DNA of 64,000 nucleotides from Ophelia neglecta (taxonomy: Eukaryota), in assembly GCA_965285935.1 (NCBI GenBank), contig OZ260662.1, forward strand, positions 37,882,001 to 37,946,000, in the 5' to 3' direction. The notes beneath the pieces are model-generated. The model saw nothing but the letters and a program-made list of their open reading frames with translations. It was not told where the DNA came from and made no database searches. Positions 23,610 through 53,937 of this stretch are shown one piece after another. Both the position numbers and the translations under genes were made by a program. The stretch's first letter is position 1; the number at the start of each line of letters is the position of its first letter.

Positions 23610-24243
23610 CTGCACGTTAGCTCGGCCCCTGCACGTTACCTAAGCCCTTTCACGTTAGCTCGGCCTCTGCACGTTACCTAAGCCCTTTCACGTTAGCTCG
23701 GCCCCTGCACGTTACCTAAGCCCTTTCACGTTAGCTCGGCCTCTGCACGTTAACCTTTCCCCTGCACGTTAGATCCACCACTGGATGTTAGCTCCGTCCC
23801 GGCACGTTACCTAAGTCCCTTCAAGTTAGCTCGGCCCCTGCACGTTAGCTCGGCCCCTTGACGTTATAGTTCCGCCCGTGCACTTTGGTTCCGCCCCTGC
23901 ACGTTACCTCAGCCCCTGCACGTTAGCTCGGCCTCTGCACGATAGCTCTTCCCCCGTACGTTATATCCGCCCCTGCACGTTAGATCCGCCCCTGCACGTT
24001 AGATCCACCCCTTCACTATAGCTCCGCCCCTGCACCTTAGCTTGGCCTCTGCACGCTATCTCTTCCCCGCACGTTACCTCAGCCCCTGCACGATAATTCT
24101 TCCCCCGCACGTTAGATCCGCCCCTGCACGTTAGATCCACCCCTTCACTATAGCTCCGCCCCTGCACCTTAGCTCGGCCTCTGCACGGTATCTCTTCCCC
24201 GCTCGTTACCTCAGCCCCTGCACGTTAGCTCCGCCCCTGCACG
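23610..24243. repeat. ~19-bp minisatellite (consensus CCCCTGCACGTTAGCTC(G/C)G), ~33 units, with higher-order structure
   Basis: Tandem units are seen directly, with a 38-bp dimer early in the array and a ~132-bp seven-unit block duplicated at ~23975 and ~24107. Confidence 0.95.
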
Positions 24244-27200
24244 GTAGTCCCTTCAAGGTGAAAATTTACCAGATATTTGTTCTTGCGTATATCTTCTGCC
24301 CATGCATTTAACATATGGCACACAGCAGGAAGTATTATTTTGGTTCTTTAACTATTAGTGTAGTTACTAGTTACCAACCATGGACCCATCGGAGTTTTTT
24401 TAAGAAAATAAAAACCGCCTTGTAAAAACATACATTGGTTAAAGCGTCATGACTTTCAGAACATGAGCCTATTTGTATATATATTTTGTTAACTAAACAA
24501 GTGGAAAACCATCTAACACTGCCCCACAGTCATCGAATAGTTCTCCCCATATCCTCATTGGTCTAAATATAAAACTAGCAATATGATTGCATATGTATAA
24601 AGTCCCATCACACGAATGCAAATGATATTGAGCTGGCAAAAGAGGGAATCAAGGCATCGGTACTAACTTTAATATTTATTATAACCCTTATACCCTATAG
24701 AAAACAGGAATTCTTCACAGACCTGACCTTCCTTACAACGCAAATTCGGCTTATTGTGTTTTTTGTGTCTAGGCACTGGATACTGTCATGCACGTCATCT
24801 CACCAACGATGAAAGTTGACCTCTGCTGGAGATCCCAGGTTATCAGCAACAACCATCCAGCAAAGCATACCACTAGTGACGTGGTGTCATGAAAGAGCAA
24901 TACTCGGGGGGAGAGGCTGGCATACATCGACTAAACTGGCCTACTTCACAAAAACAAAACACGGCCGGAGAATGAAGTAACATTGAGCCGTTCGACCTTT
25001 TACAGTGCCATTACAAGTGCTAATGACAGTAATTGACACCCAAACATCTTCATGTACGTTCCCATGATAAAGGAAATGAGCATGTTCAGACAGTCATTTC
25101 CACTTAATAATCGTGATATTGAGTGTTTGCAGGGAGCAGTCACGAAACATTGACATTGCGCAGTTTTGTATTCGTTTGTCAGCGAAATTGTAAATCATCT
25201 AAAAAGAACATGAATGATTTTACATTATTCGACAGAAGAGTTCATCTCTTTTAGTCTGACATTTACTGCTTGAGAATGATACTTGTCCGCGAGGCCAAGC
25301 TAGTTTTAGTTTCAGACGACATTAAAGCGCAATCCAACACGCTGGATATATCGCTCAGCCTCATAGAGCCTGCTAGTACCCCCTAGACAGCATCTGGCGG
25401 CTATATCTTTATCAACACTGTCCAGCAACCTGAAAAATCTCTCTAGGGTAAAAGTAAACAAACCAAAGCTCAGAGTGGTTGAAAGACTTATAATCACGCT
25501 TCATTCTGGGATCTGTTCAATCTGGGGCACTTTTTTGATTGGCCTATAAATAGATTGTTACCCATAGATTGGTGCTTTGGACGACCTTACCGCAAGTTAT
25601 TTCGGCCTTATGTGGGTATTTTGTTGATGAAAATTCTTTTCGAGTGCAAAACTACTGAAATTGAACCAAATCGAGGACCACAAGTTGAGCTGTATTACAG
25701 CGTAAACTGCCACGTACTAGCCTACACATTGTCGCACTAGTTTTGGCCATGGCTGACAATGGCATATAACTGAAACGTAAGCCGAACATTAAAAAAATGG
25801 CAAAGTCTAAAAAATATTTCTATATCTAACATTAGTCTCTCAATTTCGAGACCGCGGAAATGATCATAGACTCTCCAAGGGCATAATTAATCTCTGTCCT
25901 ATGCTTACTGACACCTTTGTTTTGTGTTCTGAAAATCATGGAAACTCTTCGCATTTGCAATTTGCATTACACGTTTATTTACTGCTTGGGACCTGGGGAA
26001 TGATGTATTGATGTTTTTGGGGCTGTGTCTGTTGATCCCGTATAGACTAAGACTAATGGATTATTCTAGATAATTGATTTAACTCTGTTTGCCGGGTAAC
26101 AACTCCCGTTTTCCCATCCTAGTGCTGACTCTCATGCGGCTGCTAGCACTCTCGTTCTCCGTCTCCTCCTTCTGCCAATCTTCGTGCTGACCCCCACATA
26201 CCTTTGACTTTCCTGGAATGTATGCCTAATCTGTGAACCACACGTTGTTATACGAACAAATGAGCGCCCATAGGCCTACTATGCCACCGTATTTCTGATA
26301 TACGCCACTGTGGGACAGGGCCATTAAAACCTTTTTTAGCGTATAATATACGCTGTGACGTACTTTGTGTAATATCTTTACCAGAAGGCCATGTTTCATT
26401 TTAACACAATTGTGTTCTTAGTTGGTCGACTTCGCTGACAGCTTTTAACGACACATTCGCAGCTGTAAAAATGAGAATCTCAAGAGGGCAGACATGCTAG
26501 TGTGAACCTATAGATCATTGAGGGAGGTTTTCGTGACTTCTAACTGGCCAATCATATTTCACGTGAAACGTAGAATGTGTTGTGTTTTTAGTTGGGTGGA
26601 CACCAATTGGTATTTTAAAAGCTCAAGTCAATGCCCCCTAGCTTTTTAGTTCTTATGTTACGCGGAAGAGTTCCACAGGTTTTAACTTAAGAAGTTCATT
26701 GGGGTATGGCCGTGATATTCAAACCTCAAAGGAGTTTTTCTTCTACCGTATTGTACATCGTTAAGACTTTGACCACGCATGGCTTATGTGAATCAGTTTC
26801 TTCTGGAACGATTTGGTTTGATGAAGTGTACCAAATCTTTAAAATATGTACTTTTTGCCATTTATTTTACCAAATGGGTTTTTAGGTCTTTTTTTTGTAT
26901 TCTTGATTATGTTACGTGAAAACCTCCTTAACAGTGGCCATTTTATTACCAACCAGTCTCCCATTCTCAGGGACTAGCGCGAGATCCCCATTTTTGTCTT
27001 CTATCTGTTCCACAAGTCTTGAAAATTCTATATTCTGCATAAGAAGTTTTTGACAATTGTATCAACATATCATGAAAATAAGACAAACCACAGGGTGTAT
27101 ATCAAACAAAATTTTAACTTGAAACTTATTGATAAAATTTCAGAAAGTGATAACAAAAAGGTAGACAATTTTGTTTGTATTATAAGGATGATTCCCCTAA

Positions 27201-46113: not shown

Positions 46114-46530
46114 ATAAGCCACCCTAAACAAATGGGCTTTGAGTTTCTTTTTAAACGATTCAGCAGATCTTACAATAGCCGGTTAGGAATTGCAGAATCT
46201 GGGACCGTATGATCTAAACGTTCGATCATCAGATCTAGATAGTCTTGCTTTTGGTTCATCGAGTACTGTCTTTGACTGAGACCGTAGAGCAAGAGTATGT
46301 TCGTTTCTCTGCAGCAGCTCGGAGATGGCCTGAAATCCATTCTGTGTTTCACTGGGAGAAAGTGTAGGTCATATAAGACCGATGTAATGTGGCCACGTAT
46401 CTTGGTATATGTGACCATTCTAGCAGCGTAGGTTTGAACTTTCTGCAACCGTTTAAGCAAATTGGCAGATATAGCACACAACAGGAAATTACAATTGTCA
46501 ATGCGGAATGTCACAAGTGCATTTACCAAC
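46114..46530 (-). mobile_element. Decayed L2/CR1-group LINE, 3' end of ORF2
   Basis: The minus strand reads VNALVTFRIDNCN...LKRLQKVQTYAARMVT...HITSVLYDLHFLPVKHRMDF, then in another frame GPRFCNS*PAIVRSAESFKKKLKAHLFRVAY. These match L2 ORF2 C-terminal motifs (SRLDYCN, HITPVL..LHWLP, LWNSLP, FK..LKTHLF). Confidence 0.88.
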
Positions 46531-46676
46531 GTGTTTGACCGTGTATTATCCCTGTCTAGATTATTGCAATAGTTTCCCGGCGAGGTATCTATTACCGTAT
46601 TTAAAACGACCGTCAGTATTTCGTAATCGCTTCCTGTTACAGTTTCTGTTAAAAAGGCGGCTTGAAGTTTCAGTTA

Positions 46677-47085
46677 TGCGACGGTTGTGGTTACACAACC
46701 GTGTTTTTCGCAGGGAAACAATAAGCACACATATACAGCATACGTGTTTTCTTAACCATTCTCCTCGTTTCATGTGTCGCGGCTGATTGCACTTCACTGC
46801 GGATGCCGAGGATAGCCTCGACCGCTAACCACACCTGATAGCCCTGAACCAAAAGACACCTGCACCACGTGACACACTCGGCCAATCGCGTGTCAGATCG
46901 CACAGGGAGCCAGTTTCCGGACTATTTTGAACTAAACTATCCTTCTCATCCCGACTTCGACCTGGAAAGACGTCTAGACTTCTCTCTCCGGAAACCTGCC
47001 TTCGATCGACATTTATTCTAATTTACTTACCTTTCGGACCTTTGTTTCAAAATCTATCTTTCGCTTATATCTGATTTTTTCTTTC
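46677..47085 (+). repeat. Split direct repeat A1 (409 bp)
   Basis: Matches 53165-53573 at offset 6488 with no mismatch found by eye. The ORF track gives the same 70-aa antisense ORF in both copies. Confidence 0.97.
46866..46915 (+). promoter_or_regulatory. Candidate Pol II promoter motifs in repeat A (E-box CACGTG 46866, CCAAT 46882, Inr-like CAGTT 46911); duplicated in A2
   Basis: The motifs are seen directly. A promoter role is inferred from their position in the 5' repeat. Confidence 0.35.
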
Positions 47086-47169
47086 TTTCTGGAGAGCCTT
47101 ATTTGTTTGGACAACCTAGATTCACCTCAGTTCAGGTACGTTCATAGTACGCTACTATACCATTTCATA

Positions 47170-47802
47170 ATGGCGAGTACCGGGTTCGTTTTCGGCCACA
47201 GTTTTGTGTCAGGTTTAAACCACCACCTCACTGGGTCTCGGGATGAGTTCAATCCCCAGTCTGTAGCACAGAAACTACGCCTTGATAAGGTCACCAAGAA
47301 TCTTTTCTTGTGTGGCGATCGAGGCGCAAAAGTTTTAGATTCAAATTGGTTACCGCCGGTCCGCCATCTTGAATTTTTCCAACCGGCATTTGCCATATTA
47401 GATATTGGTTCTAATGATCTCGCTTCTGGCGCAGAACCCCTCACTGTAGCTGTTCGGTTAGTAGATTTAGCTAAGGAGCTAAACACGTTGTTTGCCATCA
47501 ATCAGGTCACCATTTGCTCGATTTTACCCAGATCAGCTGGTTTGCCTGCACACTCACCTGAAAGTTTCTTAAACTCTATTTCGGCATGTAACAAACACAT
47601 TTTTCAACTGTGCAGCGTTGAAGCGCATGTACAATTCTGGCCCCATAAAGGTTTTTGGAATCGAGCCATAGATGAATGGTCTCTGGATGGCATTCATCCT
47701 AATTCTGATCTTGGCAGGACTTTATACAAAAAATCCTTGCGAGAAATCATTTTCAAAACTGTGCAGGCACACCACGCTTTCCCCCCCTCACATGAAGCTT
47801 AA
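47170..47802 (+). CDS. SGNH/GDSL-family hydrolase (esterase/lipase-like), element-encoded, about 210 aa
   Basis: Block I FVFGHSFV (catalytic Ser), block II GDRGA, block III DIGSNDL and block V DGIHPN (DxxH) are all present. The likely start is the ATG at 47170 (ataATGG context); the track start at 47107 is TTG. Confidence 0.9.
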   Translation: MASTGFVFGHSFVSGLNHHLTGSRDEFNPQSVAQKLRLDKVTKNLFLCGDRGAKVLDSNWLPPVRHLEFFQPAFAILDIGSNDLASGAEPLTVAVRLVDLAKELNTLFAINQVTICSILPRSAGLPAHSPESFLNSISACNKHIFQLCSVEAHVQFWPHKGFWNRAIDEWSLDGIHPNSDLGRTLYKKSLREIIFKTVQAHHAFPPSHEA

Positions 47803-47941
47803 TCTTAGCAGGCCTACCCCACTGACAACGCGTCGTGGGGAAAGCCCGCTACCCACCTTAACCCCCCCCCCCCCTCTCACACAACCGTCCATGGCCTCCT
47901 GTCTTTACACATAACCTATTTGAATGCACATGTTTCATCTA

Positions 47942-48659
47942 GGAGAGTCGGCTTCGGCCTCCAATTCTTGCTACCATGGGGACCGGCTTCGGCCCCGCGC
48001 TGCCATTGATACCATTTTGTTCTTATTGAACTTACTTGTTGTATTAAATTCCCTTCGAATATATTGACCCCAAACTAATTTTGCTTCCTTCAAAAATTTT
48101 GTTTCACCTGGCTTCTGACTTCCAGACTTTATAACATAAGCCGCCCTTTAAAATTCGAAATTCAATTTATAGCTTTGGGGACCGGCTTCGGCCCCAAGCT
48201 GCAGGTGCTAACCTTCATTTTACTGTTTGCCGGCCACGGCATATGTCACTTATCTCATGTTGGGGACCGGCTTCGGCCCCAACCTGCTTATTACCTTACA
48301 TTTTACAATTTGCCGGCTTCGGCATATGTTGGGACCGGCTTCGGCCCTGCCTGCAGTTGTCAACTTACACTTTACAGTTTGCCGGCTTCGGCATATGTCA
48401 CTTATCTCATGTTGGGGACCGGCTTCGGCCCCAACCTACTGTTGTCACCTTACATTTTACAATTTGCCGGCTTCGGCATATGTTGGGGGACCGGCTTCGG
48501 CCCCTACCTGCAGTTGTAAACTTACATTTTACAGTTTGCCGGCTTCGGCATACGTCACTTACCTCATGTTGGGGACCGGCTTCGGCCCCAACCTGCTGTT
48601 GTTACCTTACATTTTACTATTTGCCGGCTTCGGCATATGTTGGGACCGGCTTCGGCCCC
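47942..48659 (+). repeat. Array of about 15 CCG-GCTT-CGG-type hairpins; tandem units of ~85 and ~70 bp forming ~155-bp higher-order repeats (core 48177-48659)
   Basis: G-type hairpins G(3-5)-A-CCG-GCTT-CGG-C(3-4) at 47978, 48177, 48262, 48331, 48414, 48485, 48571 and 48642. T-type TGCCG-GCTT-CGGCA at 48228 (loop variant), 48311, 48380, 48465, 48537 and 48622. One variant copy at 47942. Confidence 0.95.
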
Positions 48660-48853
48660 ATCATCCCATACTGACCTAAATTTGATCAATTCATTAGTAC
48701 TACTTGGACATTCTCTGATTAACTGTTACTTAACATCCTGTGTCTACTCGACACACCCCTATGTGAAATACTACCCACACGTATTCTAGTTATGGCAGCT
48801 TCGCTGCGCCTTACAATTGTACTATTTTCTGCTGCTCTTTCCTTCTTACAGCC

Positions 48854-50254
48854 ATGCCTAAGGTTACACAAAAATCTTCCCGGCCCTCCGGATCCCTCTC
48901 CATGAAGTTGAAGGCACGAAGGAGATCCATGACCCCCTCCACAACTGAATCACCCCTCAGGAAAACCCGCACAAGACCCATATCAAAACCAGCACTTCCA
49001 ACCCAAAGACAGCAGCCGCTAAGAAAAAGAAGATTGCCAGCACGACTGGTGAATTCCTTTGAAACCCCTTCACTGTTAAGCGAGTCTGACCCACAGCCAA
49101 GCACTTCCACACAACCAGATCAACAACCAGCAGACATCACCCTACACACCATGGCAAATATGCAGCAAAGCATCATTGCTGGCCAACAACTTCTCAGTAG
49201 GCAGATGGAAACACTGATAGCTGTCCTAACCGCAAAACACAGGGAACCAGATACCCCTCAGCAGATCCTCCAAACAGAAAACCTCCAAGCGGGCAGCCCC
49301 GAATCCCCTCAAAATCTAGACACTGTCATTGATGCTCATGCTGCAACCTTAGATCAACAACATCCTTGCCTACCCCAGCCTGATCCTTACCAGACAGCTT
49401 ACCATCCGCAATCACAGCCAGGCTTCATGCAGCAGCCCCAGCCACCGGTCATGCCACCATCACAGCCCACTGACACCAGTCAGAATCAACACTCAGGAAA
49501 TTTCAACGGTGAGTTTCTAAATGTTCCCATAGTCGTTAACAACCAGCGTCCATCCACTTCATCTGGACTCCCTCTTGGAGCATGTGTGGACATGCAGATT
49601 AAGCAAAAAATTTGGGCCCATAAATATGTTGATCTTGCAGATATTCTCTATCCAAATCAGTCTCAATCTTACTCACTCCAATTCTCCGACCCAAGTTCTA
49701 CCCCCCAACTTAACCTCAATCCTCGTAGGAAAAAGCAGCTCACAGAAAATGAATGGAGTTCTGCAATGGACATTTATGTAGCTATATATGTGCAAAAATA
49801 CCCTTCCCACCTCAGTGACCTGCTTACATACTGCCATCACATCAAGCAGTTGATGCGTCGCGGAGCTGAATGGCGATATTATGATCATGAGTTTCGCACC
49901 CAGAGAGAGCACGCAGAAGTGCCATATTCTTGGGCAACTGTGCGACAAGACTTACAGCTAGATGCATATTTCCCCCTCCAACAATCCTCTCGGCCGCCAA
50001 ATTCTTTTCGTGCCCACCAAGAAAATCAAAAGGTCCCATCTGGCTATTGTTTCACCTTCCACCAAAGGGGGGTGCGATGCTTCAACAACCCATGCCCATA
50101 CAAGCACGAATGCCCTAGGTGCTCCAAACGCCACCCCATGTATTCCCAGTGTAGCTCTTTCACACTCACACGCCCTCAACAACCTCAGACCGCCCCCAAA
50201 CTCAAAGTTGCCAACCCCAGTACAATTAGGCGCCCTGGCCAAATATCTAAGTGA
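48854..50254 (+). CDS. gag: Gag-like ORF1 (466 aa) of the YR retrotransposon
   Basis: Basic and Q/P-rich N-terminal half. DIRS/Ngaro Gag-like core (IKQKIWAHKYVDLADIL...W...WRYYDHEFR...W) and a C-terminal Cys/His zinc-finger region CFTFHQRGVRCFNNPCPYKHECPRCSKRH. Confidence 0.9.
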   Translation: MPKVTQKSSRPSGSLSMKLKARRRSMTPSTTESPLRKTRTRPISKPALPTQRQQPLRKRRLPARLVNSFETPSLLSESDPQPSTSTQPDQQPADITLHTMANMQQSIIAGQQLLSRQMETLIAVLTAKHREPDTPQQILQTENLQAGSPESPQNLDTVIDAHAATLDQQHPCLPQPDPYQTAYHPQSQPGFMQQPQPPVMPPSQPTDTSQNQHSGNFNGEFLNVPIVVNNQRPSTSSGLPLGACVDMQIKQKIWAHKYVDLADILYPNQSQSYSLQFSDPSSTPQLNLNPRRKKQLTENEWSSAMDIYVAIYVQKYPSHLSDLLTYCHHIKQLMRRGAEWRYYDHEFRTQREHAEVPYSWATVRQDLQLDAYFPLQQSSRPPNSFRAHQENQKVPSGYCFTFHQRGVRCFNNPCPYKHECPRCSKRHPMYSQCSSFTLTRPQQPQTAPKLKVANPSTIRRPGQISK

Positions 50255-51782
50255 ATACGAACACGGAAAATACCTTCTTGATGGATTCAAATATGGTTTT
50301 GACATTAAATTTTCTGGCCCGGAAACCCCAACCCGATCAAAAAACTCTCAATCTGTATTAAAAAACCCTGAAATAGTACAAAGAAAGATAGAAAAAGAAA
50401 TAGCCCTTGGCAGAATTGCTGGCCCTTTTAAAAATCCACCCTTCCCCAATTTCAAATGTTCTCCATTAGCACTGAGAGAAAAACAATCTCCAGGCACATT
50501 TAGGCTCCTGCATAACCTGTCCTTTCCATATGATGAAACCTCTGTCAATAACAACATCCCTAGCGACTCCACGTCGGTTCAGTATGAAAGTATTAAAAAT
50601 GCAATATCACTCATTCAGCAGTGTTCACCAGGGGCCTTCATGGCAAAAAGTGACATAGCAGATGCTTTTCGGCTCATACCTATAAACCCTAAACAATATC
50701 ACCTAATGGGATTCCAATTTAAAGGGGAGTTCTATTACGACAAATGTCTGCCTATGGGGTGTGCATCATCTTGTAAAATTTTTGAAACTTTTTCAAATGC
50801 CCTGAAATGGATTTTGGCAAATAAATTTGATGTCCAAAACATTGTCAAAATACTTGACGACTTTCTTTTCGTGTCTCCACAACTCTCGACATGCCATAAG
50901 TACCTAAACATATTCCTAGCCCTATGTAAAGAGATTGGGGTCCCCATTGCCCCTCACAAAACACTAGGACCCTCCACTGCAGTAGTATTCATGGGAATAC
51001 ACCTAGACTCGATACAAATGACTGCTTCCCTTCCACCAGATAAACTAGCACGATATACGCAAGACATAAAAGATACTTTGGCACGCAAGAAATTAACTCT
51101 GAGAGAACTCAAATCATTGATAGGGAAATTACAATTTTCAACTTGCATAGTAACCTCAGGCAAACCATTTTTAAGACGCTTGCACGACCTTACCATTGGC
51201 CTTTCGAAACCGTTTTACTTTCTTCGCATCAGTCGAGGGGCAAGACAGGACCTCCAAACCTGGCTCAACTTCCTACAAAACTATAATGGAAAGTCCCTTA
51301 TGACAAAACCCTCTAACCTTGATTCGACCACAATACATCTCTTTTCCGATTCTTCCAAATTAGGCTTTGGAGCCACTTACAAAAACAATTGGATACAAGG
51401 GAAATGGCCCATCTCCTGGCAAACACTAAACATAGCCGTCCTGGAAATTTACCCCATACTTGCGATTATTGTAACATTTGCTAAACACCTAAGTCACTCA
51501 CACATAACATTCCACTGTGACAACCAAGCCGTTGTCGAAGTGATAAAAAAGCAGAGCTCAAAATGCCCCCGCATCATGGCCATCCTACGCCCACTCGTTC
51601 TTACCCTCCTCTTAAATAACATAACATTGCATCCCGTACATATACCAGGTATTGACAATGTTTTATGCGACAAAATTTCTCGATTCCAGGCGGACAAATA
51701 CACTCTTCTACAATATGGGATGAAGTCATCCCCCGTGTCGATCCCAGAGGAAATCCTTCCTCGCAACTACAACTTGGTTTAA
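49962..51782 (+). CDS. pol: Reverse transcriptase + RNase H (ORF2, 606 aa), overlapping gag and YR
   Basis: RT motifs FRLLHNLS, MAKSDIADAFRLIP, LPMGCASS and ILDDF. RNase H motifs FSDSS, IAVLEIYP, HCDNQAVV and HIPGIDNVLCDKISR. The true start is uncertain because conserved sequence begins near LPTPV (~50210). Confidence 0.96.
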   Translation: MHISPSNNPLGRQILFVPTKKIKRSHLAIVSPSTKGGCDASTTHAHTSTNALGAPNATPCIPSVALSHSHALNNLRPPPNSKLPTPVQLGALAKYLSEYEHGKYLLDGFKYGFDIKFSGPETPTRSKNSQSVLKNPEIVQRKIEKEIALGRIAGPFKNPPFPNFKCSPLALREKQSPGTFRLLHNLSFPYDETSVNNNIPSDSTSVQYESIKNAISLIQQCSPGAFMAKSDIADAFRLIPINPKQYHLMGFQFKGEFYYDKCLPMGCASSCKIFETFSNALKWILANKFDVQNIVKILDDFLFVSPQLSTCHKYLNIFLALCKEIGVPIAPHKTLGPSTAVVFMGIHLDSIQMTASLPPDKLARYTQDIKDTLARKKLTLRELKSLIGKLQFSTCIVTSGKPFLRRLHDLTIGLSKPFYFLRISRGARQDLQTWLNFLQNYNGKSLMTKPSNLDSTTIHLFSDSSKLGFGATYKNNWIQGKWPISWQTLNIAVLEIYPILAIIVTFAKHLSHSHITFHCDNQAVVEVIKKQSSKCPRIMAILRPLVLTLLLNNITLHPVHIPGIDNVLCDKISRFQADKYTLLQYGMKSSPVSIPEEILPRNYNLV

Positions 51783-52678
51783 ACAAACTTTTAAATGCCT
51801 CGATGGCCACAAGCACAAGCCGCGTTTACATTAGGCAATGGCAAGCCCTTTTATCTTTCATTACCCATGAATTACAACTGCCACCCACCCTCCCCGTGTC
51901 AGATTATACCTTAGCTTTATTTGTTACTCACCTCTTCCAACAGGGCCTTCGCCAGTCAACTATTCGAACATATATGTCGGCTATCTCCTTCGTTCACACC
52001 ATTAAAAAATTCCCAGACCCCACTAGTAGTGTTGTTGTTCGAAAAGCAATTGACGGGATCAAATCCCTGGAAAACTACGACTATGATAGCCACCAACTCC
52101 CAATCACAAAGTCAATATTGGAAAGACTTATCGATTCCATCCCTTTCTGCACAATGTCCCCTTATGATAGAACCATGTATAAAGCACTCTTTCTTATTAT
52201 GTACTATGCCTGCATGAGAGCATCCGAAGCTGTCCTGACCCAAACCCCTCAACACATGTTGCAACTTAATCAGGTTCAACCAAAAGGCAAAGACTTTCTC
52301 ATAACTTTTCGGTCTTTTAAACACTCGAAAAATCGCACAGCAACAGTTTTGTTACAAGCCTCAACTGAAAATCTATACTGCCCGTCTTATGCACTTCGTA
52401 ACTACCTCCTAAAAAGAGGACAACAAGACGGTGCGCTGTTCATAAACCAACATAAAATGCCCATTACAAGAAACACCTTTGCCATTTTCCTAAAACAATG
52501 CATGACTATGTCTGGAATTAATCCCGCACAATACAACACACATGGTTTCCGCATAGGCAGAGCCACACAAATGTCCTTACAAAATGAGAACGAACACACA
52601 ATAAAATCTGTCGGCCGATGGAGCAGTGACGCCTTCAAAACTTACATCAGACCCGCACATGTGCCTCTCCCACCCTAG
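51665..52678 (+). CDS. Tyrosine recombinase (ORF3, 337 aa)
   Basis: Catalytic set R (CMRASE), K (FKHSK), HxxR (HGFRIG), W (GRWSS) and Y (KTYIRP). The N-terminal core-binding region reads STIRTYMSAISFVH. Confidence 0.96.
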   Translation: MRQNFSIPGGQIHSSTIWDEVIPRVDPRGNPSSQLQLGLNKLLNASMATSTSRVYIRQWQALLSFITHELQLPPTLPVSDYTLALFVTHLFQQGLRQSTIRTYMSAISFVHTIKKFPDPTSSVVVRKAIDGIKSLENYDYDSHQLPITKSILERLIDSIPFCTMSPYDRTMYKALFLIMYYACMRASEAVLTQTPQHMLQLNQVQPKGKDFLITFRSFKHSKNRTATVLLQASTENLYCPSYALRNYLLKRGQQDGALFINQHKMPITRNTFAIFLKQCMTMSGINPAQYNTHGFRIGRATQMSLQNENEHTIKSVGRWSSDAFKTYIRPAHVPLPP

Positions 52679-52850
52679 AGCGCCCCGCACCTCAGCTAGT
52701 TTAATTGGGGTGACCAGCGTATGCTGCCCCCAGGCAGGGTTCTCTCCCGGGAAGACCAGCGTATGCTGCTCCCAACACATCCCCTTTATTCGCTCTATAT
52801 TTGTGGGATCCCGCTCAGTGTGCTACAAACGCCTGCACCCCTCGCTTATG

Positions 52851-53164
52851 GCGACCTTGCAGGGTATCCCACATTGTACATATTGATGCCTACTCTGTAT
52901 ATATGTTCATGTCGCTTCGTTAGTCATTATTGTACATACGTTAATAGTTATACTTAACTTTAACTAAGTCATATTTTGTAATCATATTTCGGTGTATGTA
53001 ATGACCAAATTATTCTACTATTGTTATTCGATTTCAACAACGTGTTTTCTAATTTCCTGTGATTATAATATTCAGAACTCTTTACCAATTCATAATTATC
53101 AAAATATTTAATAAATTTAATTAAACTCCTATGTGCCTTGTGTTATTGCTTTCCTAAAGAAAAA
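52851..53164 (+). repeat. Split direct repeat B1 (314 bp)
   Basis: Runs GCGACCTTGCAGGG...TTCCTAAAGAAAAA, matches 53624-53937 at offset 773, and directly abuts A2. Confidence 0.96.
53110..53152 (+). terminator. Candidate polyadenylation signal in repeat B (AATAAA 53110-53115 plus a GU-rich downstream element); copy at 53883-53888
   Basis: AATAAA is followed ~16 nt later by TGTGCCTTGTGTTATTGCTTT. Confidence 0.55.
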
Positions 53165-53573
53165 TGCGACGGTTGTGGTTACACAACCGTGTTTTTCGCA
53201 GGGAAACAATAAGCACACATATACAGCATACGTGTTTTCTTAACCATTCTCCTCGTTTCATGTGTCGCGGCTGATTGCACTTCACTGCGGATGCCGAGGA
53301 TAGCCTCGACCGCTAACCACACCTGATAGCCCTGAACCAAAAGACACCTGCACCACGTGACACACTCGGCCAATCGCGTGTCAGATCGCACAGGGAGCCA
53401 GTTTCCGGACTATTTTGAACTAAACTATCCTTCTCATCCCGACTTCGACCTGGAAAGACGTCTAGACTTCTCTCTCCGGAAACCTGCCTTCGATCGACAT
53501 TTATTCTAATTTACTTACCTTTCGGACCTTTGTTTCAAAATCTATCTTTCGCTTATATCTGATTTTTTCTTTC
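53165..53573 (+). repeat. Split direct repeat A2
   Basis: Copy of A1. Confidence 0.97.
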
Positions 53574-53623
53574 CCTCCCATCCCACCCGATTGTACATTT
53601 TGATGCCTACTCTGTATATATGT

Positions 53624-53937
53624 GCGACCTTGCAGGGTATCCCACATTGTACATATTGATGCCTACTCTGTATATATGTTCATGTCGCTTCGTTAGTCAT
53701 TATTGTACATACGTTAATAGTTATACTTAACTTTAACTAAGTCATATTTTGTAATCATATTTCGGTGTATGTAATGACCAAATTATTCTACTATTGTTAT
53801 TCGATTTCAACAACGTGTTTTCTAATTTCCTGTGATTATAATATTCAGAACTCTTTACCAATTCATAATTATCAAAATATTTAATAAATTTAATTAAACT
53901 CCTATGTGCCTTGTGTTATTGCTTTCCTAAAGAAAAA
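53624..53937 (+). repeat. Split direct repeat B2 (element 3' end)
   Basis: Copy of B1. Identity stops after AAGAAAAA at 53937. Confidence 0.96.

Follow-up and report, generated by a model that had tools for sequence, protein, structure and literature searches.

Ngaro-like elements of the order DIRS are tyrosine-recombinase (YR) retrotransposons, and the passages of PMC9210276 and PMC4157794 that deal with them define them by split direct repeats and by their ORFs. Two such elements of Xenopus, DIRS-53_XT and DIRS-54_XT, have been described with an SGNH hydrolase of unproven function (PMC9210276). As described there, they resemble the element analysed in the current study in the repeat order A1...B1-A2-B2, the overlapping gag, RT/RH and YR ORFs, the absence of a methyltransferase and the presence of an SGNH ORF. 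They differ from it in the position of the hydrolase, which follows the YR in the Xenopus elements, whereas here it precedes gag, has its own ATG and is accompanied by a predicted splice acceptor at the gag ATG. The terms 'splic' and 'intron' are absent from the main text of PMC9210276.

Splicing parts the Gag-making RNA from the RNA used for copying in the Ty1/copia elements EVADE and BARE1, which form spliced subgenomic gag RNAs, and through the intron of Ogre (PMC12786077, PMC3735527), and a comparable separation is proposed here. By those accounts pol is removed by introns positioned inside gag or after it. The intron predicted in the current analysis is instead placed ahead of gag and takes out an entire upstream gene, so that the full-length RNA would make no Gag. 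Accessory ORFs before gag are also found in Drosophila LTR retrotransposons of the MDG1 group, in which sORF1 and sORF2 lie upstream of gag and long reads have been reported without splicing (PMC11952523); as reported there these ORFs are of 70-110 aa, are unrelated to the hydrolase and belong to LTR/integrase elements. An SGNH hydrolase is carried by another retroelement, the non-LTR retrotransposon ZfL2-1, whose ORF1p esterase binds acidic phospholipids (PDB 4c1b, PMC3905857). According to that description the esterase is a domain of ORF1p, whereas the hydrolase described here is a free-standing first ORF with weak similarity to it (E 3.4e-4 against 4c1b). In the portions covered of a literature that includes PMC9210276, PMC6681497, PMC7192593, PMC7599744, PMC9341512, PMC13465315, PMC3783388, PMC4157794, PMC8547959 and PMC3266345, we have come across neither a hydrolase before gag nor regulated splicing of Ngaro elements.

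Organisation of the element

The window, which is the whole stretch of 64,000 nucleotides of Ophelia neglecta analysed in the current study, contains at positions 46676-53937 an intact Ngaro-like YR retrotransposon with the order hydrolase-array-gag-RT-YR. Its split direct repeats form identical pairs in the arrangement A1 ... B1-A2-B2, the layout of Ngaro-like elements of the order DIRS. Repeat A1 (46676..47085, 410 nt) is an exact copy of A2 (53164..53573) and B1 (52851..53164, 314 nt) is an exact copy of B2 (53624..53937), which forms the right end of the element; these repeats and the other parts of the element are all on the plus strand. A1 presumably comprises the promoter and 5' leader. 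A hairpin of 9 pairs opens both copies of repeat A (46681-46702 and 53169-53190), at the place where transcription is presumed to begin. The spacer between A2 and B2 (53574-53623) includes a 34-nt partial copy of B (53590-53623) directly before B2, and since contigs of the same family join A2 straight to the matching place in B, the window copy may carry a small duplication.

Four unbroken ORFs lie between the repeats. The first, with its own ATG, encodes a predicted SGNH hydrolase of 210 aa (47170..47802) and is followed by a gag-like ORF of 466 aa (48854..50254), which has been assigned by its position and its homology to ORF1 of the relatives and has a basic low-complexity N-terminus, a conserved core and a Cys/His-rich end; a Pfam search with this ORF gave no match. 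The RT/RNase H ORF (49962..51782), in the +1 frame to gag, matches PF00078 and weakly RNase H, and closes 93 nt past the RNase H end motif. The YR frame (51656..52678) matches PF00589. The latter three ORFs are found on one strand and in this order, as in Ngaro-like elements. The hydrolase, which in some Ngaro-like members only is situated after the YR, is 5' of gag in the window, and the stretch from the YR stop to B1 is only 172 nt. PAT-like elements combine split direct repeats with a methyltransferase domain, as set out in the relevant parts of PMC4157794 and PMC7192593; the window element has the repeats and no methyltransferase, as none of the methyltransferase families matched the last 245 aa of the RT ORF at E<=0.1. 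Its ends are direct repeats, unlike the inverted terminal repeats with an internal complementary region of DIRS1-like elements, and no long inverted repeat matching such ends is present among the 25 longest listed of 67.

An open frame on the minus strand (46170-46673), which we take from its motif to resemble the C-terminal part of a CR1/L2-type LINE ORF2, ends beside the left end of the element, which may thus have inserted into an old LINE fragment. Elsewhere in the window (23610-24247) there is a 19-bp minisatellite of about 34 copies that is unrelated to the element. In contigs of three DNA-like runs from one sample the depth of the element is roughly 3-4x that of the flank, a measure of depth and not of copy number. 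The same three runs also contain a second subfamily that is about 86% similar over 47118-47841.

Relatives and their phylogeny

To assemble the relatives, 5 loci were taken from genome bins, 32 contigs from the bins G002 and G003 and, out of 211 confirmed metagenome loci, the best 80; their domains were mapped and near-copies were merged at 85% RT identity. Their sources are animal DNA present in metagenomes and in genome bins, together with annotated molluscs, echinoderms, a ribbon worm, fish, amphibians and lizards, and none was found in the viral contigs scanned. The bacterial genome bins G001-G004 (L001-L043) hold many animal retrotransposon contigs, with 77 RT matches in G002, which represents host contamination. 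Two loci, L012 and L027, are head-to-tail tandem copies with periods of about 7.1 kb and 7.0 kb.

Two clades separate in an RT tree built from 85 rows (a quick IQ-TREE run rooted at the midpoint, with SH-aLRT as the only support and without named reference elements). Clade A (55 rows, SH-aLRT 96) includes all the 19 rows with the hydrolase 5' of gag, namely the window and 18 families, and also L003, L045 and L071, in which the hydrolase has its own ATG and the contig order is permuted or tandem. L003 had been considered as an element with a 3' hydrolase and was rejected as such on account of its own hydrolase ATG and its placement in clade A. Clade B (19 rows, SH-aLRT 98) includes all the 11 rows with the hydrolase just after the YR, which is the published layout, plus L105 and L111. 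A tree of the hydrolases (34 rows, FastTree, support 93) splits in the same way, and the full repeats in L012 and L013 confirm the 5' position of the hydrolase. Judged from these trees, the 5' hydrolase marks a whole RT clade.

Signals of the first predicted intron

The sequence-only reading had proposed an intron that removes the hydrolase gene and the array that follows it and ends just before gag, and all of its landmarks are confirmed in the sequence. The leader donor CAG/GTACGT (47133..47141; the slash marks the cut, at 47135/47136) lies 50 nt past A1, the hydrolase ATG following 34 nt further on, and a polypyrimidine tract with the acceptor TTACAG/ (48826..48851) ends 2 nt before the gag ATG at 48854, giving an interval 47136-48851 of 1716 nt. 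The region from 48797 up to the acceptor is free of AG. The GT donor, pyrimidine tract and YAG acceptor of a U2-type spliceosomal intron are all present. Branch-point matches are loose and occur only at 48713-48730, more than 110 nt from the AG. The sites were scored, as had been suggested, with a crude position-weight matrix whose frequencies are approximate and not trained on the host. On this scale the donor comes ninth among the 3433 GT of the window and is the joint best of 285 in the element, tied with 49509, and the acceptor comes first among the 3364 AG of the window.

A donor near the 5' end and a structured RNA downstream of it, kept only in the unspliced form, recall the retroviral scheme. 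Retroviruses translate gag from unspliced and env from spliced RNA, and their packaging signal lies downstream of the major donor. Unlike in retroviruses, Gag is proposed here to come from a spliced RNA, the hydrolase is not an envelope protein, and LTRs and integrase are absent. The description of this arrangement as the reverse of retroviral logic therefore holds as an analogy only. The layout of the element does reverse that of its sister clade, in which gag comes first and the acceptor belongs to the hydrolase.

The sole AG between the leader donor and the hydrolase ATG is 12 nt away. As the window has neither an acceptor for the hydrolase nor a donor near its stop, the leader donor could pair only with the gag acceptor, or with the weaker YR acceptor. 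The spacer between the hydrolase stop and the gag ATG contains 14 ATGs along with 15 hairpins, and from 3 to 32 ATGs are found in the hydrolase-gag spacer of each of the 17 elements examined in this respect, which argues against scanning to gag. Three short upstream ORFs inside A1 count against the scheme proposed below. Genomic copies precisely lacking 47136-48851, which the sequence-only reading had suggested looking for, did not turn up: of the 14 joints listed for the contigs of the DNA-like runs, none corresponds to 47135-48852, nor to the second junction 49508-51690 described below. Contigs, which drop rare variants, cannot exclude such copies, and this result has no bearing on splicing.

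Alternatively, gag could be transcribed from a promoter of its own within the hydrolase-gag spacer, in which case the acceptor would be used with a short local 5' exon or remain unused, the hydrolase would be expressed from a separate transcript and the array could be a set of DNA sites for protein binding. An ATTAAA at 48043 could end such a short hydrolase transcript, and MDG1 elements are described as making a short transcript of their upstream ORFs by early polyadenylation (PMC11952523); moreover, in 5/16 elements (L012, L013, L014, L055, L076) a donor stronger than the upstream one lies inside the putative intron. In the other 11/16 the upstream donor outscores every donor inside, and in the window no GT donor above 0.6 exists between the hydrolase ATG and the acceptor, as against 6.3 for the upstream donor (0.5 and 6.1 on a second scale). 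A separate gag promoter also leaves unexplained the conserved donor upstream of the hydrolase ATG, whose nearest acceptor in the window is that of gag, and we consider this explanation unlikely.

Conservation of the first predicted intron in clade A

Conservation of these sites in related elements, which the sequence-only reading had named as a check, has been examined with gag ATGs chosen by a basic-residue rule that is blind to the upstream sequence. No gag ATG could be called in 23/55 loci of clade A and 9/21 of clade B (the 19 tree rows with L031 and L035), and L029 and L030, being absent from the tree, were excluded from the acceptor count. An acceptor scoring >0 within 20 nt of the gag ATG is found in 25/31 clade A relatives (26/32 with the window) as against 2/12 in clade B, and in 16-18% of control windows. 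The Fisher p of 2e-4 is overstated as kin are not independent, the test being in effect one clade contrast with many retentions within the clade at 37-53% RT identity to the window. The 6/31 clade A relatives without a scoring acceptor include L084 and L092, possibly wrong picks of the ATG that have been counted as misses, and a strong acceptor at gag occurs in L097 of clade B.

A donor within 130 nt upstream of the hydrolase ATG scores >=3 in 12/18 families and >=5 in 9/18, with 12% and 1% respectively in control windows. Seven of the 12 matches are GC donors (CAG, AAG or TAG before the cut and GCAAGT after it), largely from one subclade; in clade A such donors are found at L049:1346, L056:654, L057:1270, L065:1212, L066:800, L106:2062 and L116:1205. 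The GC donors were admitted only after being seen, and with GT donors only the counts are 5/18 at >=3 and 3/18 at >=5. The closest relative with both sites, L045 (RT identity 53%), has the same CAG/GTACGT, at a distance of 29 nt from the hydrolase ATG that follows, and its acceptor likewise ends 2 nt before the gag ATG. The donor motif of L044 is similar to that of the window, and L052, outside the 18 families, has GAG/GTAAGC 143 nt upstream of its hydrolase ATG. A leader joined directly to gag has not been found among the collected loci, in which 15 leaders were searched for.

The conservation supports the view that gag is reached by splicing out the hydrolase, although the picture drawn by the sequence-only reading was incomplete, a second intron (49509-51689) having been missed. 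Part of the clade may choose its donors differently, with a donor at the hydrolase stop removing the spacer only, or with the leader donor choosing between a hydrolase and a gag acceptor, and the hydrolase then need not come from unspliced RNA. In 9/23 clade A elements (L012, L013, L014, L044, L045, L084, L094, L106, L122) a donor-like site lies no more than about 25 nt from the stop of the hydrolase, compared with 6% of control windows, in a search window that was set after the fact. In addition, an acceptor just before the hydrolase ATG is present in 4/8 relatives with a distant donor (L049, L056, L066, L106), with introns of 63-121 nt. Both features are absent from the window; among the 7 elements with a called gag ATG, the donor near the stop shares the frame of gag in just one (L094), and GTAA or GTAG at the stop codon lifts the chance rate. 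Such a choice of donors is therefore regarded as quite improbable.

The hydrolase and the hairpin array

The predicted hydrolase is SGNH/GDSL-like (PF13472, E 1.7e-7, 32.3 bits with a cut-off of 32.9) and keeps the catalytic Ser, Asn and Asp-x-x-His blocks, seen as GHS, G-ND and DGIH. By analogy with the ZfL2-1 esterase it may work at membranes.

The hydrolase gene is followed by an array (47948..48659) of 15 stem-loops, which span 47948-48655, with the core YCG-GCTT-CGG and a higher-order unit of about 157 nt. One of the loops is the variant GCCA, and eight of the stem-loops have an outer G/C stem with a bulged A. A reading of the core as the cUUCGg tetraloop has been rejected, as the GCCA variant and the predicted fold keep a CCG/CGG stem with a four-base GCUU loop. 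No Rfam family matches the array at E<=1. The hairpin core occurs at least 5 times in the spacer of the window only, out of 24 spacers, and other, unrelated tandem repeats are present in the clade A spacers of L012, L013, L044, L049 and L052. The array had been regarded as a part of the mechanism; it is judged here to be family-specific and outside the conserved mechanism, because both splice sites are present in L045, the closest relative, while its spacer has no hairpin core. As the array would sit on the RNA that keeps the first intron, we guess that it could be a packaging or export tag.

The array also bears on the notion that no splicing takes place, so that one bicistronic RNA would be made, translation of gag would depend on reinitiation, on shunting or on internal entry assisted by the array, and the splice-like signals would be due to chance or relics. 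Unspliced ORFs before gag have a precedent in PMC11952523 as far as that report describes them, and the array folds better than its shuffles (z -4.1, a value inflated by the repeats). Internal entry needs no pyrimidine tract with AG at the gag ATG, yet such a signal has been retained in clade A and rarely in clade B, and the array itself is missing from L045 and from most relatives. We consider the absence of splicing to be very improbable.

A second predicted intron that would join gag to the recombinase

Inside gag, after codon 218, the element has a second donor, ACG/GTGAGT (49506..49514), in phase 1, and near the end of the RT ORF a second acceptor ending in TTCCAG/ (51672..51689), in phase 1 of the YR frame. 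The predicted splice 49508-51690 joins 218 Gag codons to 328 YR codons in frame. The acceptor CAG follows the RNase H end motif in 75/80 elements having the motif; where a single Gln follows the motif it is encoded by CAG in 57/57 cases, compared with 46% of other RT Gln codons. This CAG is in phase 1 of the YR frame in 67/67 elements, the frame opening a median of 25 nt earlier. The best donor upstream of the gag core is in phase 1 in 41/46 elements (background 50/91) and scores >=4 in 24/46, with 1/46 and 5/46 in two control windows. These signals are conserved in both the clades.

The YR is preceded by a Gag N-terminus, to which it is joined, in RefSeq gene models of Mytilus, Ostrea, Lineus, Saccostrea, Patiria, Xenopus and other animals. 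Among 83 YR proteins of >400 aa, 52 have an N-terminal extension lacking the gag core and RT by profiles, a class that includes at least two unrelated proteins, and 25 of the 52 start Gag-like. Two extensions were checked, and both are similar to the N-terminal part of Gag in a gag-RT-YR model (E 9e-17 and 6e-20). Several of the Gag-N/YR gene models have multiple isoforms, and RefSeq isoforms as a rule rest on transcript evidence. In Mytilus LOC143072529, whose YR is nearest to clade A, the isoforms X1, X2 and X3 differ solely upstream of the gag Met, and X1 and X2 part one residue before it, which is what an acceptor at that place would give. The second intron is better supported than the first, and it is likely, from the conserved phases and the gene models, to make the recombinase as a fusion of the Gag N-terminus to the YR. 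Goodwin and Poulter are said to have described, in 2004, spliceosomal introns in Ngaro1 ORFs, and part of the present findings, above all the gag-YR splice, may already be in print.

The RT ORF is in the +1 frame to gag in 44/50 elements. A search for a conserved acceptor or ATG for RT found none, the phases of the best acceptor being distributed 21/18/11 and an ATG before the conserved start being present in 34/50. A +1 frameshift is consequently only the default guess for the expression of RT.

The converse arrangement in clade B

The best AG ahead of block I of the clade B hydrolase is in phase 1 in 14/14 called elements, and also in L022, which is outside those, and most hydrolases have no ATG at their start. 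It is likely from these features that the clade B hydrolase is a second exon. The elements with the hydrolase after the YR and a phase-1 acceptor at the hydrolase start are L004, L020-L024, L031, L033-L035, L097, L099, L105, L111 and L119. The phase implies a predicted Gag-N/hydrolase fusion, which would resemble ORF1p of ZfL2-1 as it is described in PMC3905857. No such fusion is present in 13 long hydrolase proteins, a set drawn with a profile of the 5' type. Across the two clades the predicted acceptor thus accompanies the later of the two genes, gag in one clade and the hydrolase in the other.

A scheme for the expression of the element

The gene order, the repeats, the splice-like signals and their clade-wise conservation are observed features of these elements, and the scheme built on them is given a probability of about 0.75. 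A single transcript would start in A1. On the unspliced RNA the hydrolase would be the first long ORF, and the same RNA would serve as the template for copying. Splicing from 47135 to 48852 would make the gag ATG the first among the long ORFs, yielding Gag and probably, by +1 frameshift, RT. A further splice from 49508 to 51690 would fuse the codons of the Gag N-terminus in frame to those of the YR. The element could be regenerated only from RNA keeping both the introns, and Gag, RT and YR would then have to act on the genomic RNA in trans; the RT of DIRS-1 is described as acting in trans (PMC7192593). The array, found only on RNA that keeps the first intron, would be a candidate tag for its packaging or export.

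A wider proposal, to which we give somewhat less than an even chance, is that a widespread and undescribed Ngaro-like clade runs its life cycle by inverted alternative splicing. The full-length genomic RNA would encode the hydrolase only; Gag, RT and the Gag-N/recombinase fusion would come from RNAs that have lost the gene-containing 5' intron; and the genome would be packaged in trans via signals in the intron, here the 15 stem-loops. The sister clade would keep gag first and splice the same Gag N-terminus to recombinase or hydrolase.

Implications

The findings bear on how elements of the order DIRS express their overlapping ORFs and on the role of the hydrolase, and RNA-seq data already available for mussels, oysters and frogs allow the exact junctions predicted here to be checked. 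By this finding many 'uncharacterized' RefSeq genes would be spliced retrotransposon transcripts, and the 5' hydrolase may be lacking from consensus libraries, as assemblies break at the repeat-rich spacer. The recombinase is predicted to carry a Gag N-terminus rather than to be a free protein, which bears on particle entry and target choice. One clade of these elements is predicted to keep its template RNA apart from its Gag mRNA, with a whole gene hidden in a 5' intron.
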